Shown: in pieces, positions 2,064-14,667 of the stretch
Numbering within the stretch: the first letter of the stretch is position 1
How the letters are laid out: each line of letters begins with the position of its first letter
DNA from: a virus
Taxonomy: Duplodnaviria; Caudoviricetes
Direction: 5' to 3' (one strand)
IMG/VR virus record: IMGVR_UViG_3300025838_000022
Location: 1 to 64,000 of that record
DNA: 64,000 nt
Program-made: the position numbers and the translations under genes
The notes under the pieces: generated by a model
Database searches by the model: none
What the model was told of the DNA's origin: nothing
Seen by the model: the letters and a program-made list of their open reading frames with translations, nothing else

Positions 2064-3431
2064 ATGAAGATATTTAATAGTAGTAAGAAGACACGTAGAA
2101 CTTTTAATAGCGTTCTTGCAGGTGTTTTCGATGATATCCCCACAGACAAACCACAAGTACCTGACGATGCTGTTGACAAGCAAAAGAAGGTTGGCCCACT
2201 GAGAATGCGTTTCTTCAATGGGTTTGCTTCATTTGACCAAGACCCAATGAAGCGTGGCCTTGATAAGGGTGCTCAGGTTGCTGCTCACCACTACCTAAAG
2301 GGTTGTCACTATGCTTGTGCCAAAGATCACGCTGATGGTATATGCCGCAAAGATGACTCTTGTGAGCGTAATAACTGCGTTGGTGGATACAAAGACCAAG
2401 GTCTCAGCGAGCCTACTCAAGAAGCCATTGAAACGTTTGGTTTGATCAAGCCTAAATATGGTAAAGGCCGTGGCAACTGGATGTATTCCGGTGACTGCAG
2501 CAGAAGACAGTTAAGAGCTGAGGGTATTACTGATGAGTCTAACACGTCAAAACTTGCTAATTTGCCTACGTTGAGCTCGTATCTTAACCTTCAGCTTAAG
2601 CCTGCTGGGCGTGATGCAGATGAGAACAGGATTCATAACCTCACTGCCGACTACTACTTCTCTAACCCTAACACGATTGTTCGCTGGGGCAAAAAACCAG
2701 ATGGTTCAAAGGACTCAAATAAGCCAATTGCTATTGGTCAGTACTTTGATGAAAAGAACAAACCACAGATGGCTTACCCTGATGTGACCATTGGTGGTAT
2801 CCACCACCTCAGAAGATTGGCAGCTGACAACCTTTTGAACCGTGGTATCACTGACACAAAGACATGGTGGCACACAATGAAACACATTGGCCACTTTGCA
2901 CACAACGACCCCAATGATCCAGAGCAGCCCGGTGTTGCAGCTCATAAGGAAATTGAGGGTGTTTTCAGCTCAATCTTTGATCCTAAGAATACATATGTTA
3001 AAGATCCCAAAGAACAGCCAAAGTACAACAACGCAAGAACTGCAAGGTTTGTTCTCAGTAACCACCCTGGTCTTATTTTGAACAAAAATGCCCACCCTTC
3101 GGACAGTTGGATTGACGTTCAGAACCATAATGAAGCTGCTACAAGTAAAGATGAAGCAGTTAAGCGTGCTTATTACCGAGGATTCCCCTCAAGATACAGT
3201 CCAATGCTTGATGACAGAATGTCAAGTCTTGGTGCCAGAGGAAAATTTGACCCACTTCGCAACGATTGGCCTAAGCCTCACACGCAACTTTGGGCTGAAC
3301 GAGCCGTACAGGGTAGAAGAGACCAGGAAGATGCGTTGTTTGCTGGTCATGCAGACATTATTCCTGAGAATGTACCCAATCTTAGCCTTGGTGATCTTAG
3401 TGAAGAAGGTTACGAACCAGGTCTTGCATAA
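2064..3431 (+). CDS. Hypothetical protein with Cys cluster
   Basis: 455-aa ORF, FNS leader repeated twice at the N-terminus. Confidence 0.8.
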   Translation: MKIFNSSKKTRRTFNSVLAGVFDDIPTDKPQVPDDAVDKQKKVGPLRMRFFNGFASFDQDPMKRGLDKGAQVAAHHYLKGCHYACAKDHADGICRKDDSCERNNCVGGYKDQGLSEPTQEAIETFGLIKPKYGKGRGNWMYSGDCSRRQLRAEGITDESNTSKLANLPTLSSYLNLQLKPAGRDADENRIHNLTADYYFSNPNTIVRWGKKPDGSKDSNKPIAIGQYFDEKNKPQMAYPDVTIGGIHHLRRLAADNLLNRGITDTKTWWHTMKHIGHFAHNDPNDPEQPGVAAHKEIEGVFSSIFDPKNTYVKDPKEQPKYNNARTARFVLSNHPGLILNKNAHPSDSWIDVQNHNEAATSKDEAVKRAYYRGFPSRYSPMLDDRMSSLGARGKFDPLRNDWPKPHTQLWAERAVQGRRDQEDALFAGHADIIPENVPNLSLGDLSEEGYEPGLA

Positions 3432-3496: not shown

Positions 3497-3910
3497 ATGG
3501 CTGAAAAGTGTGACTGTGAAGCTTGTACTGTTAGAGAAAAGTACAAAGATAAGCAAAAAGTAGTCAAAAATACTGACAAAATCTCCGGATTTAAGGAAAA
3601 TATTGCCCAATCTAGCAATATTTCGTCAAAAGTTCTCAGTAAATTGACTAAATCCGACGAAAAACCTAAAAGTAACAAGTTTTTTCGTATCACAATCTCA
3701 GAATTTGATGAAATTGCTAAAACTTGCATGGAATATTCCCGTGAAGTAGATGAATTTGACTTCACGATGTTATTAGACGAGTTTTTTGACCTAGATATTG
3801 ACGATAATGATGACGTCAATGATCTTGACTACGAAAATGACATCGTCGTGTTCAAAAGTCTTGATGAAGTCATTGATTATCTTCAGAATAAAAGAGAAGA
3901 CGAACAATGA
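3497..3910 (+). CDS. Hypothetical protein (N-terminal CxCxxC, acidic C-terminus)
   Basis: 137-aa ORF, AAGGA RBS, overlaps next start (ATGA). Confidence 0.7.
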   Translation: MAEKCDCEACTVREKYKDKQKVVKNTDKISGFKENIAQSSNISSKVLSKLTKSDEKPKSNKFFRITISEFDEIAKTCMEYSREVDEFDFTMLLDEFFDLDIDDNDDVNDLDYENDIVVFKSLDEVIDYLQNKREDEQ

Positions 3911-6984: not shown

Positions 6985-7647
6985 ATGGAAATTTGCCACG
7001 TTTGCAACAAAGGCAATCTTGTTAGAACAGCTAGCAAGTTTGGCCCTGAGATCTACTGCGATGGTTGCCGTAGAGTAATCCTTAGCTCATACCTTGGTTT
7101 TAATTTCACTGCTGCTAGAGCTGCTGATGAAATTGAAGAGTGCAAGGTTGAGACCCCACAAGGCCCAATGCCTGGTTGGAAGGGTCCTGGTAAGAAGGCT
7201 AAGTGCCACATCTTTGAGCCAGGTGACTCTGAGGCTGAACAAGCCGCTAAAGCAAGAGCTATTGACTCTGCTTACGCTCACGAGCACAATAAGATTGCCT
7301 CAAGAATTATTAATTCAACAGCAGGGTTTATGGGTGCACCAACTTCAATGATGCCTCCTCAGCCACCGACGTCGCCAATGGCTGCACCAGACCTTAGAAA
7401 CTCTACTAACGTTCAGCCACAACCAACTAGCTCACAAGATCTTAGCAACACGGGTCAAACTGGTATTGGTGAAGCTACGGCTCCTGGTGGCATGCAGCCT
7501 GGGAACATGAATAGCAACATGCCAGTTAACAGTGGTACTACTGCTAAAAAAAAGATTGCTGAATTGCTTGAAGAGACGCTTGGCAAAAAATTTTGCACAC
7601 AACACATGACATATGATGGATGTAATCCAGACGAAAACTCGCAATAG
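6985..7647 (+). CDS. Hypothetical protein with N-terminal zinc ribbon (CHVC...CDGC)
   Basis: 220-aa ORF, GAGG RBS. Confidence 0.8.
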   Translation: MEICHVCNKGNLVRTASKFGPEIYCDGCRRVILSSYLGFNFTAARAADEIEECKVETPQGPMPGWKGPGKKAKCHIFEPGDSEAEQAAKARAIDSAYAHEHNKIASRIINSTAGFMGAPTSMMPPQPPTSPMAAPDLRNSTNVQPQPTSSQDLSNTGQTGIGEATAPGGMQPGNMNSNMPVNSGTTAKKKIAELLEETLGKKFCTQHMTYDGCNPDENSQ

Positions 7648-7671
7648 TCAATAAGAGAATAGAAAGATTCT

Positions 7672-8385
7672 ATGATGAATTACGACAACATTGAAATCGA
7701 AGCCAAGACTGCCGCTGCTGACACACGTTGGTTCAATGGCACATCAGAGAGCATCCTGACAAGACTCGACAGACTTCAGGATATCTTGGACAGAACGCGT
7801 ATGGCAGCTAGCAACCCCAATGCTGACATTAGAGACATTGAGCGTTATGCAAACATTCTAACTGAGCTTGGCGCTGAGAAGGAATCGCTTGAGAAGCTGG
7901 CTTCAGAGTATGTTGACTTTGACACAGATGATTACCTTAACAGCTTGCCAGGTGGTACTGTTGCTAAGGAATACCGTGTTAGCAGTGCTGGCACGACTGA
8001 CTTGGGCGAAGATGATGGTAGCTTGTTGTACCGTACAGCTTCTTCTGTTGAATCTGAGTACCATGACGCTGACTGGATCAATTTTGTCACTGCTGGTGCT
8101 GAGATCTGGGTTGAAGATCAAAACCCACGTTTGCTCAACAACCAACTGGACACCCGTGAAGCTGCTGTCTACTACGTTGAGCAAAAGACTCTCCCTCTCC
8201 TTGACACTGTAAAGCGTGCATCAATTATTGATAACTTTGTTGACAATGTTGAAATTTGCCGCAGAACAAAGAACGCAAGCGCAGAATTCCGCACTGTTAA
8301 GAGCGCAAAGGCTAACAAACTTGCTGCAACATTTGTACAAGATGCCATTGACGACTCCTTTGGGAGTGGCCTAAACTGGCTCTAA
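7672..8385 (+). CDS. Hypothetical, probably head-associated protein
   Basis: 237-aa ORF with C-ending codon bias like the structural genes; many [KR]xA motifs. Confidence 0.75.
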   Translation: MMNYDNIEIEAKTAAADTRWFNGTSESILTRLDRLQDILDRTRMAASNPNADIRDIERYANILTELGAEKESLEKLASEYVDFDTDDYLNSLPGGTVAKEYRVSSAGTTDLGEDDGSLLYRTASSVESEYHDADWINFVTAGAEIWVEDQNPRLLNNQLDTREAAVYYVEQKTLPLLDTVKRASIIDNFVDNVEICRRTKNASAEFRTVKSAKANKLAATFVQDAIDDSFGSGLNWL

Positions 8386-12258: not shown

Positions 12259-12572
12259 TGTCCAGTCCACTGAACACAACTACAACAAGAGCCACAGGTC
12301 GTGCTTTCGTTGCAGCTATCGTTGGTGCTTTGCTTGCTTGGGGTGCAACCAAGTGGGGTAAGTTCAACACCGGTACGTTTGCTGCGTTGACACCTGTCGC
12401 TTCCGGCTTGTACTACACGGCTATTACTGCCTTGGAGAAGAAGTACCCTAACCTTGGTTGGTTGCTTGGTACTCTTCCTCAACCTAAGGTTGTAGCAACA
12501 CCTACGCCTGCACCAACTCCAGAGCCAACTCCGGCTCCAGTTGCTGCTAAAAAGACTGCTCCTAAGAAGTAG
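12258..12572 (+). CDS. Holin-like membrane protein with Pro/Lys-rich tail
   Basis: Two hydrophobic segments, basic C-terminus, AAGGAG RBS. Confidence 0.5.
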   Translation: MSSPLNTTTTRATGRAFVAAIVGALLAWGATKWGKFNTGTFAALTPVASGLYYTAITALEKKYPNLGWLLGTLPQPKVVATPTPAPTPEPTPAPVAAKKTAPKK

Positions 12573-12579
12573 TTCTTAA

Positions 12580-12731
12580 TCCCTGGTAGCTCAATTGGTA
12601 GAATAAATGCAACAAAATAATTAATCCGCCCTAGCATAATGGCAATGCACCAAACTGTTAATTTGCAAGATCTTGGTTCGAATCCAAGGGGCGGAGCTTC
12701 TCGGTCGTAGGTTCGAGTCCAGGCTGGGGAG
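12580..12731 (+). pseudogene. Split tRNA (probably Asn): 5' part 12580-12602, 3' part 12710-12731, enclosing an intact tRNA-Asn
   Basis: TCCCTGG-TAGCTCAATTGGTAGA pairs with GGTTCGAGTCCAGG-CTGGGGA-G (acceptor includes two G-U pairs); anticodon arm absent. Confidence 0.7.
12625..12696 (+). tRNA. tRNA-Asn(GTT)
   Basis: Acceptor TCCGCCC/GGGCGGA, D stem GCAT/ATGC, anticodon loop CTGTTAA, T arm CTTGG-TTCGAAT-CCAAG; no encoded CCA. Confidence 0.9.
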
Positions 12732-12736
12732 CTTTA

Positions 12737-12813
12737 GGTCTTGTAGCTCAGTTGGTTAGAGCACTTCCCTGTCACGGAAGGGGTCGTGGGTTCAAGTCCC
12801 ATCAAGATCGCCA
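12737..12813 (+). tRNA. tRNA-Asp(GTC)
   Basis: Acceptor GGTCTTG/CAAGATC, anticodon arm CTTCC-CTGTCAC-GGAAG, canonical T arm, CCA. Confidence 0.95.
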
Positions 12814-12905
12814 GTGAGGGATGGTGTAATGGCAGCACGTCTCACTGACTCGAACGTAAATATAAATTAATGATTTAATATTGCCGTTAGAGCATAGAAG
12901 TAAAT

Positions 12906-13583
12906 ATGAGCAGAAAAAAAATAACAGATGAACAGCTTAGAGAAGCAGTATCTAATTCTCCATCAATATCGCATGCGTTAAGGTCGTTAGGGTTATCACC
13001 AAATGGTGGTACCCATGGGCACTACTCAAAGCGGATTAAAGATGCTGGTATATCAACTAAGCATTTTTTGCCTAATAATAATATTTATGGTATTCATCGT
13101 GATAAATTAAAGCCAGAAGAAATATTAGTAAAAAAACCCTATGGGTCATCGCGTACACAACGTGTTCATCTTCTTAGAGCTCTTTTAGAGATGGGCATCG
13201 AATATAAATGCGCAATTTGTGGAATCAATAACAATTGGAATGAGAAAGAATTAACACTCCAAATCGATCACATCAATGGTGATCGTATTGATAATAGTTT
13301 AAAAAACCTTCGTTTTCTTTGCCCTAATTGTCATTCACAAACAGAAACTTATGGTACCAAAAAACCAAGACGCCAATGTGAAAAATGTAAAAATTACATA
13401 CAGCAAAACAGCAAAACAGGTACTTGTAGAAGCTGCTATCCTCGTAAAAATAAAATTAATTGGCCAGATAATTATACATTACTTGCTATGGTTGAAGAAA
13501 GCAGCTATACTCAAGTTGGATTAAAATTAGGCGTTTCAGATAATGCTGTGCGTAAACGCTTAAAACATTCTGGGGTAGTGTAA
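12906..13583 (+). CDS. HNH homing endonuclease with HTH-like N- and C-terminal domains
   Basis: CAICG...LQIDHINGDRIDNSLKNLRFLCPNCH; C-terminal LGVSDNAVRKRL. Confidence 0.9.
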   Translation: MSRKKITDEQLREAVSNSPSISHALRSLGLSPNGGTHGHYSKRIKDAGISTKHFLPNNNIYGIHRDKLKPEEILVKKPYGSSRTQRVHLLRALLEMGIEYKCAICGINNNWNEKELTLQIDHINGDRIDNSLKNLRFLCPNCHSQTETYGTKKPRRQCEKCKNYIQQNSKTGTCRSCYPRKNKINWPDNYTLLAMVEESSYTQVGLKLGVSDNAVRKRLKHSGVV

Positions 13584-13639
13584 AGGTAGCACCGGAGTCT
13601 TTGGAACTTCTAGCCCTCGTTCGACCCGAGGCCCCAGAG
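13569..13639 (+). tRNA. tRNA-Gln(TTG), overlapping the last 15 nt of the HNH gene
   Basis: Acceptor TCTGGGG/CCCCAGA, anticodon arm GGAGT-CTTTGGA-ACTTC, T arm CCTCG-TTCGACC-CGAGG. Confidence 0.9.
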
Positions 13640-13676
13640 CTTTTGTTGAAGGTTCGAGTCCTGGTCCCTCAGCCAA

Positions 13677-13750
13677 CCGGGTGTGGATCGGTCATCCAAT
13701 TAAAGCTTATATCTTTGACTACGTGGGTTCAATTCCTACCGCCCGGACCA
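13677..13750 (+). tRNA. tRNA-Ile(TAT) with atypical D arm
   Basis: Acceptor CCGGGTG/CGCCCGG, anticodon arm TAAAG-CTTATAT-CTTTG, T arm GTGGG-TTCAATT-CCTAC, A-CCA end. Confidence 0.75.
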
Positions 13751-13839
13751 TTTAAAATATGCTCTAGGTTATAACAGGTATTAGGTATATATTACCTATT
13801 GTCCAGCGCCCTTTAAGGGCATAGCCAAGGAGTAACACG

Positions 13840-14667
13840 ATGACCTCGATGTTCGATTTTGACGATTCAGTGAACATGGCATTTGATGCCAAGTTTGCTG
13901 GTAAAAGCCTGGTGGCTGCTAAGCACGAATTGCTTACAAAGACCGGTGATTTCTTTTTCCTCGCTCACAGCGACCGTGAGCTTGCTCAACGCATGCGTAT
14001 GGTTGAAGAGGACATCGAGAAGGTTGCTTACCACAAGCTTGCCAACGTTAGTGACTCCAAGGCCAAGTTGGTTCGTGCTGTTTACGATGAGTGGCAGTTG
14101 CGCCACGCTTCTTGCCAAATGTGCAAGACTGCCGTAATGGGCCTTGCTCCCGGTACTATCTCTGAAACCGTTAAAGAACACGCAAGTGGTTTTGGTGGAG
14201 CAGCCGCAGGTGCAGCTATTGGTACAATGATTGCACCCGGACCTGGTACAGCAATTGGTGTAGGCGTTGGCCAGCTTACTGGCGAAATGTTGAATAAGAG
14301 TCACAACATCAAAAAGCACAGAGACCAAAGTCTTGACTTGATGCACCACGATTACAATACTGATAATCACTCTGATGCTGAGCATCACCCAGATCACCCT
14401 GCAACAGTTCAAGCTTCACGCAAACTTGCTGATGATGGCAGTGGCAATGGCAGCGGTGGCTCTATGCTCCCTGCCGGTTCTAATCTCCCTGGCAACATGC
14501 TTGGAGGGTTCTGCCACGGTTGTGCTTCAGCTATCGGTGCTGGTGTAGCTGGCCTTGCTGGCCTTGCTCTTTTTGCTTCTAAGCACGCTGCTGGTGGCCA
14601 CGAAGTATTTTGTGAAGATTGCAAAGACAACCCAAGCCAAATCAAGTGCGATACTTGTAAGCCATAA
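13840..14667 (+). CDS. Hypothetical virion-associated protein with two glycine-zipper hydrophobic segments
   Basis: AAGGAG RBS; GGAAAGAAIGTMIAPGPGTAIGVGVG and AIGAGVAGLAGLALFA. Confidence 0.75.
   Translation: MTSMFDFDDSVNMAFDAKFAGKSLVAAKHELLTKTGDFFFLAHSDRELAQRMRMVEEDIEKVAYHKLANVSDSKAKLVRAVYDEWQLRHASCQMCKTAVMGLAPGTISETVKEHASGFGGAAAGAAIGTMIAPGPGTAIGVGVGQLTGEMLNKSHNIKKHRDQSLDLMHHDYNTDNHSDAEHHPDHPATVQASRKLADDGSGNGSGGSMLPAGSNLPGNMLGGFCHGCASAIGAGVAGLAGLALFASKHAAGGHEVFCEDCKDNPSQIKCDTCKP

Follow-up and report, generated by a model that had tools for sequence, protein, structure and literature searches.

A putative homing HNH endonuclease cassette with a spare tRNA-Gln inside a broken tRNA-Gln gene of a lake phage

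How does a nuclease gene come to lie in the middle of a phage tRNA gene, together with a second, complete tRNA gene of the same anticodon, and what becomes of the tRNA that it interrupts? Homing endonucleases are thought to remain harmless either by residing in introns or inteins or by their position beside the target. The window (i.e., the whole 64,000-nt stretch of DNA that was analyzed) corresponds to the initial 64 kb of a contig of 122.8 kb from an uncultured virus, a lake phage; it contains genes for a portal and a tail sheath and features a small tRNA cluster at 12580-13750 in which such an arrangement is found. Our preferred reading, to which we assign a probability of roughly 0.78 from the sequence comparisons, is that a homing HNH endonuclease traveling with a spare tRNA as a cassette replaced ~12 bp of a resident tRNA-Gln(UUG) gene, with later decay of the nuclease gene in some relatives. 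Relatives of the locus were collected by means of the conserved downstream gene and exact words from both tRNA types, and are referred to below by contig handles (e.g., L002). Searches of a cultured-phage database returned generic tRNA and HNH matches only and no relative, and exact 24-mers of both tRNA types, used in a search for a host origin, had zero matches in 185,579 prokaryote genomes.

The cluster holds four complete tRNAs predicted by ARAGORN and Rfam, all on the plus strand, namely tRNA-Asn, tRNA-Asp, tRNA-Gln(UUG) at 13569-13639 and a tRNA with a UAU anticodon. Two of these are intact neighbors of the split gene: tRNA-Asp(GUC) at 12737-12813 (Rfam, 68.9 bits) and the UAU tRNA, called as Ile, at 13677-13750 (Rfam, 30.1 bits, barely over the threshold). 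The D arm of the latter is left unaligned by the Rfam tRNA model, as a 14-nt stretch that is a local gap only, and several relatives retain this tRNA at the same place. The second tRNA cluster of the genome, at 73.4-74.3 kb, has no nuclease and no tRNA fragments.

The split tRNA-Gln(UUG) gene extends over 12815-13675, with its 5′ piece at 12815-12839 and its 3′ piece from 13639 or 13640 to 13675. Between these outer pieces lie, in order and on the same strand, a 66-nt AT-rich leader that forms the left end of the insert (12840-12905), an HNH ORF of 225 aa (12906-13583) and a complete but different tRNA-Gln(UUG), the apparent cargo of the cassette (13569-13639; ARAGORN; Rfam tRNA, 49.9 bits), whose minimum-energy fold is a cloverleaf; all the elements named in the original prediction were thus recovered in their places. 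The 5′ remnant (25 nt, tRNA positions 1-26) comprises the 7-nt acceptor strand, the D arm and G26 (BLAST E-value 2e-5 to intact tRNA-Gln), and the 3′ remnant (13640-13675) comprises the 3′ anticodon-stem strand, the variable loop, the T arm, the 3′ acceptor strand, G73 and CCA (E-value 1e-6). The Gln-type identity proposed for the outer gene is borne out by the matches of these pieces to the intact tRNA-Gln(UUG) of relatives, 20/20 for the 5′ remnant (L003) and 25/26 for the 3′ remnant, as is the perfect complementarity proposed for its two ends, since the acceptor strand of the 3′ remnant, followed by G73 and CCA, pairs exactly with 12815-12821.

The boundaries of both pieces needed revision. 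The 5′ half had been described as running through the 5′ anticodon stem to a terminal CT; its acceptor strand and D arm stand, but homology to the intact L066 allele (2991-3062) stops after G26, and the 7 nt that follow match no intact allele found and appear better assigned to the insert. The 3′ end had been described as a T loop with TCCCTCA-G-CCA, and these are present, but the remnant is longer than that, ~36-37 nt, starting at about tRNA position 39, with G13639 possibly common to it and the inner tRNA. What the outer gene lacks is a stretch of ~12 nt that made up the 7-nt loop and the anticodon-stem strand 5′ of it, in place of which stands the 800-bp insert (12840-13639), with a 3-nt microhomology at its right junction. 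The leader is identical to that of L002 bar one base and occurs in no empty-site allele. The T stem of the 3′ remnant has two mismatched pairs. With these losses the resident tRNA-Gln gene is, to judge from its sequence, dead, and the inner tRNA-Gln(UUG), the sole tRNA-Gln gene detected in the 122.8-kb genome, would be the only tRNA-Gln of the phage.

The HNH ORF and the inner tRNA overlap by 15 nt, such that the last four codons and the stop codon of the former are the first 15 nt of the latter. At the left end of the insert, the opposite strand of 12847-12858 reads as a 12-mer similar to a tRNA T loop plus some of the stem, with complementarity to 12708-12719 at 11 of 12 positions and to 13652-13660 at 9 of 9; this may be chance or a trace of an older rearrangement. 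No weight was given to the corresponding inverted repeat of 9 nt (12847-12855 and 13652-13660), which lies at the two ends of the cassette, since a 1.2-kb stretch should contain about three pairs of this kind by chance alone.

The HNH gene appears compositionally foreign, with a GC content of 34.7% as against 44.9% for the genome. Members of the HNH superfamily have a beta-beta-alpha-metal core with a catalytic histidine and metal-holding asparagine or histidine residues, and a subgroup of them has two zinc-binding CxxC pairs. The 225-aa protein shows the features of the superfamily: it matches the Pfam HNH models PF01844 (21.9 bits, cut-off 21.4) and PF13392 as well as PHROG 10822 (E-value 2e-55), and C102, C105, D121, H122, N134, C139, C142 and H143 do not vary across 18 aligned relatives. 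With its HNH and zinc residues thus conserved, the nuclease appears intact. In an AF2 model (pLDDT 87), three helices form an N-terminal module that precedes the HNH core, with strands at 119-122 and 135-138 and then a helix at 140-145. The core leads into a linker region, modeled less confidently, that holds CxxC pairs at 158-161 and 174-177, and the C-terminal part is a bundle of three helices. The bundle is a predicted helix-turn-helix, which sigma-70 region 4 and HTH profiles match weakly, under the Pfam cut-offs. Searches of the PDB by sequence and by fold gave weak HNH matches only, and every fold match was an HNH nuclease.

Whether the outer gene was once whole at this position can be read from the relatives. 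At least 15 related contigs carry an intact outer-type tRNA-Gln(UUG) at the same position of the cluster, and the allele found in L066, L071, L074, L075 and L076 agrees with both remnants and so reveals which 12 nucleotides are missing. These contigs are one mosaic phage group, in which the downstream protein is 66-85% identical over its N-terminal part. A strictly isogenic empty site was not found among the related contigs, in which the carriers of an intact HNH gene have tRNA-Asp upstream and the intact outer allele was never seen in that context.

The same split gene and insert recur in L002 and L013, and the L002 form of the insert is carried by three further assemblies (L083-L085); identical junctions in at least five assemblies speak against an assembly artefact. 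A MAFFT alignment of the window with L002 over 12836-13662 has 8 mismatches in 827 nt, as against flanks that are ~85% identical; the ORF contributes 6 differences, 5 of them synonymous, and the downstream flanking gene has only 66% protein identity. Over all four other assemblies that carry it, the insert is 99% identical and the flanks about 85%. The high identity of the window to L002 breaks off within the T loop of the 3′ remnant: the 5′ T-stem strand is GAAGG in both, followed by the matching CCTTC in L002 and by CCTGG in the window, and the 3′ remnant of L062 switches to a third allele, with CCTAG. In both the window and L062, the first ~23 nt of the 3′ remnant are of the L066/L002-type allele and the rest, from the T loop on, is of another allele. 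This switch between two alleles within the T loop accounts for the mismatched T stem, and the 3′ remnant of the window is, by its sequence, a chimera of two alleles. Chimeric remnants of this kind are what co-conversion during break repair in homing predicts, and the same right junction is found in three different outer alleles, with the donor-type sequence carried along. The contrast between insert and flanks, together with such apparent co-conversion tracts, is a hallmark of homing endonucleases.

Other relatives display nuclease-less states of the locus. In L059, L063 and L077, both remnants and the inner tRNA are present and ~692 bp of the HNH gene is gone, by a deletion that spares a few nt at the start of the intervening region and 33 nt at its end and is bounded by a 3-nt microhomology, TCA. 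In L062, the inner tRNA and the 3′ remnant directly follow tRNA-Ser, without a 5′ remnant. The tRNA of L009 and L010 is also of the inner type but differs in its anticodon stem; after it comes the 3′ remnant of another outer allele, which is intact in L012, and a 5′ remnant is again absent. In L058, a different outer tRNA encloses an inner-type tRNA to which a diverged relic of the ORF end is fused. The new (inner) tRNA is retained in every one of these states, of which those of L009/L010 and L062 could have arisen by other recombination routes rather than by decay. Filled, empty and decayed sites thus all occur among the related contigs, the sporadic presence that is typical of free-standing homing endonucleases. 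The cassette inside a broken tRNA gene, with its own tRNA of the same anticodon, that the original prediction had proposed is therefore well backed by the empty sites, the 99%/85% contrast, the chimeras and the nuclease-less derivatives.

Comparison of the inner tRNA with the matching intact outer allele reveals an identical 7-nt anticodon loop and anticodon stems that differ at 3 positions. Within the 12 nt lost from the outer gene, the inner tRNA differs at one position, so any discrimination between the two genes must rest on the flanks in the D arm and in the variable loop and T arm. The tRNA of L009 (3640-3711) and the inner tRNA of the window (13569-13639) have identical acceptor, D and T arms and quite different anticodon stems. 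The stem of the window inner tRNA resembles that of the outer allele that was replaced, which suggests patchwise gene conversion between inner and outer genes.

A census of 49 non-redundant loci with a relative of the 225-aa protein found a tRNA within 300 nt in 42 and, in 23, an ORF end at most 20 nt from the start of a same-strand tRNA; random positions in the same loci averaged 3.0 and did not exceed 9. The commonest overlap of ORF and tRNA is exactly 15 nt (seven loci), with the stop codon at tRNA positions 13-15, and the partner tRNAs have 14 different anticodons. These adjacency statistics indicate that nuclease-plus-tRNA units are typical of the family. HNH ORFs also end within the downstream tRNA in L017 (3459-3468), L021 (3219-3225) and L082 (8123-8137). 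Cleavage by RNase P at +1 would strip the stop codon from the HNH reading frame, and the fused ORF-tRNA junction suggests a link between tRNA processing and the control of a toxic nuclease.

tRNA remnants on both flanks were clear only in the present lineage, a strict filter detecting none beside other members of the HNH family. The search for split tRNA ends in relatives, proposed as a check in the original prediction, gave a divided outcome: the pattern was found in the present lineage, but a T-loop motif and a 7-mer with an upstream complement, sought with the same geometry filter, gave 0 hits outside the lineage in 25 other HNH loci. A looser D-arm filter flagged candidate 5′ fragments in L090 and L114. 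Two further loci have tRNA duplications of other kinds. In L018 (an AT-rich contig with a giant-virus bin label; 2655-2681 and 3532-3619), a complete tRNA-Leu(CAA) flanks the HNH relative on one side, and a 27-nt perfect copy of the 3′ part of this tRNA plus its flank lies on the other, a different, duplication-type footprint. In L119 (551-711 and 1230-1310), three tRNA-Trp copies surround the HNH relative, one of them decayed and missed by ARAGORN.

The tRNA-Asn locus next door appears to repeat the nested geometry. An older tRNA-Asn 5′ fragment, comprising the acceptor strand and an incomplete D arm (12580-12602, plus strand), matches the intact tRNA-Asn of relatives at 15/15 of its first 15 nt and is followed on the same strand by a 22-nt AT-rich spacer (12603-12624), a complete inner tRNA-Asn(GUU), the likely cargo of a second cassette (12625-12696; ARAGORN; Rfam tRNA, 61.2 bits), and an older tRNA-Asn 3′ remnant with a mismatched T stem, 3′ acceptor strand and discriminator (12697-12731). 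The last 29 nt of this remnant equal the L082 remnant, and an alignment places the remnant against the 3′ portion of the L002 tRNA-Asn, which is intact. At the syntenic site of L082 (12570-12745 of the window versus 7610-8275), the same 5′ fragment precedes an AT-rich leader, a 146-aa HNH gene where the window has the spacer, a tRNA-Asn that matches the inner tRNA-Asn of the window 74/74 and is overlapped by the last 15 nt of the HNH ORF, and a longer 3′ remnant. The alignment of the 22-nt spacer with the L082 HNH gene is ambiguous. By this comparison, 12580-12731 is probably the relic of a second break-and-replace cassette whose nuclease has been lost in the window. The 146-aa HNH protein belongs to PHROG 2255 and has no significant similarity to the 225-aa protein; thus, two unrelated HNH genes have taken on the same architecture in one phage lineage.

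Illegitimate recombination in a crowded tRNA cluster could in principle produce nested tRNA pieces, with the HNH gene being a bystander that happens to lie near tRNAs and neither targets the outer gene nor spreads the inner one. tRNA debris is indeed common among the relatives (e.g., an orphan T arm with acceptor end, an orphan 5′ half and a 40-nt partial duplicate, 85% identical, after the UAU tRNA, at 3105-3185 and 3873-3912 of L012 and 144-183 of L011, with such duplicates in both L011 and L012), L009 and L062 have the inner type without an HNH gene, and the junction microhomologies are just 3 nt. We nonetheless hold this explanation to be unlikely, as it leaves unexplained the 99% identity of the insert against 85% for the flanks, the one right junction in three outer alleles with donor-type sequence alongside, the ORF-tRNA overlap conserved across the family and the repetition of the geometry at tRNA-Asn with an unrelated HNH gene.

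A second alternative attributes the retention of the cassette to selection and not to drive: the new tRNA would aid the phage (e.g., against a tRNA-cleaving host defense), the HNH gene being its vehicle. The inner tRNA does outlive the HNH gene in several lineages, and phage tRNAs and SegB-driven tRNA amplification counter tRNA-targeting defenses (PMC13096335). Against this, retention is expected anyway where the inner gene is the only tRNA-Gln left, and the inner and outer genes, with their identical anticodon loops and stems only 3 positions apart, would not be distinguished by an anticodon-loop nuclease. We accordingly regard this alternative as improbable, and the same comparison lends no support to the suggestion in the original prediction that the allele swap allows escape from host anticodon nucleases. 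That a self-splicing intron (group I or similar) houses the HNH gene and the inner tRNA, with the outer tRNA restored at the RNA level, is barely credible: the insertion is in the anticodon arm, and endonuclease-bearing group I introns occur in bacterial tRNA anticodon loops (PMC3984707), but no Rfam intron family is detected in 12300-14000 even at an E-value of 10, the ARAGORN intron mode gives no spliced outer tRNA, the locus has neither a ribozyme core nor exons that join to a complete tRNA, the 3′ remnant has a mismatched T stem, the full tRNA in the insert survives alone in relatives, and the 5′ anticodon-stem strand and the whole anticodon of the intact allele are absent from both remnants, which when joined cannot make a tRNA.

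Two further candidates were rejected. Restoration of the integrase type, which calls for a tyrosine or serine recombinase and a direct repeat of the tRNA 3′ end that rebuilds the same gene, is excluded: the HNH gene is the only ORF in the insert, and the inner tRNA differs in sequence and is no duplicate of the outer end. A tandem duplication with decay is excluded by the nested order, in which the outer 3′ end is downstream of the inner gene. With no intron signature and no recombinase, the locus agrees with the earlier proposal of a strategy that involves neither splicing nor an integrase.

Returning to the homing cassette, the anatomy, the empty sites, the insert-versus-flank identity, the chimeric remnants and the decay series can be read directly from the contigs; the step that we infer is that the HNH enzyme cleaves the outer allele where this is intact, at a site close to the anticodon arm, and spares the inner gene. 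In a mixed infection, the enzyme would cut resident alleles that are still whole, within the anticodon arm or close to it, and the break would be repaired from a cassette-bearing genome, with the tRNA remnants and the neighboring tRNA genes serving as homology arms, so that repair would copy the nuclease and the spare tRNA into the target. Once no targets were left, the nuclease gene would decay and the new tRNA would stay, and on balance the tRNA alleles of the phage cluster would be turned over. The tRNA-Asn locus next door would have undergone an equivalent cycle, driven by an HNH gene of another family. More tentatively, and at somewhat less than even odds, we posit that "break and replace" is a general third homing lifestyle in essential RNA genes, in which an HNH endonuclease with a spare tRNA invades genes of the same anticodon, decays and turns over alleles, and in which the stop codon inside the tRNA couples expression to processing, with the RNase P cut at +1 yielding a stop-less message. 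One phage lineage here keeps the whole apparent cycle, from the empty site through invasion and nuclease loss to the retained new tRNA. If the enzyme cuts the intact allele, this would account for the tRNA fragments that litter phage tRNA clusters, provide a mechanism for the fast exchange of tRNA alleles between phage genomes and offer compact natural nucleases aimed at tRNA-gene sequences.

Among known systems, SegB of phages T4 and T6 is a free-standing GIY-YIG homing endonuclease in a tRNA cluster that recognizes a T-loop motif and spreads with the neighboring tRNA genes by break repair in co-infection (PMC2330249), and the association of SegB with tRNAs is widespread (PMC13096335). The cassette resembles it in being a free-standing nuclease gene among phage tRNA genes; however, SegB is of the GIY-YIG and not the HNH family, lies between intact tRNA genes and has no replacement tRNA fused to its ORF. 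In the intronless homing of T4 (SegF and MobE), the endonuclease-less allele is cut, the endonuclease's own genome is guarded by sequence differences and flanking markers are co-converted (PMC2988022, PMC2790892). There the target remains intact in the donor as a resistant allele, whereas in the cassette it is destroyed and complemented in cis. The endonuclease-bearing group I introns of bacterial tRNAs (PMC3984707) share with the cassette the anticodon-arm site and the nuclease passenger; unlike them, the cassette is without a ribozyme, and function is restored by a second gene and not at the RNA level.

The closest parallel in principle is offered by the mobile ORFs of fungal mitochondria, which make gene hybrids in atp6 of Allomyces macrogynus and in atp6, atp9, cox2 and nad3 of Glomus by an intronless insertion into an essential gene, whereby a foreign gene end is supplied and the native end is left downstream as a remnant without use (PMC3630166). 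The corresponding layout is seen at 12815-13675 of the window and in L002, L059 and L082, as an analogy of principle only and not of membership. The fungal elements are LAGLIDADG or GIY-YIG ORFs that target protein genes in organelles and supply an in-frame 3′ end only, whereas the cassette targets a phage tRNA gene and supplies a whole new gene. In our incomplete literature collection, no paper was found on a nuclease that disrupts a tRNA gene and brings a complete substitute for it; the literature searches thus agree with the original prediction that such an element was undescribed, the published parallel in principle being that from fungal mitochondria (PMC3630166). Unlike elements with the intron, intein or beside-target lifestyles, this one would occupy and destroy a tRNA gene and pay for it with a linked spare, and the locus appears to be a well-supported new variant of free-standing homing with an unusually complete series of natural states.
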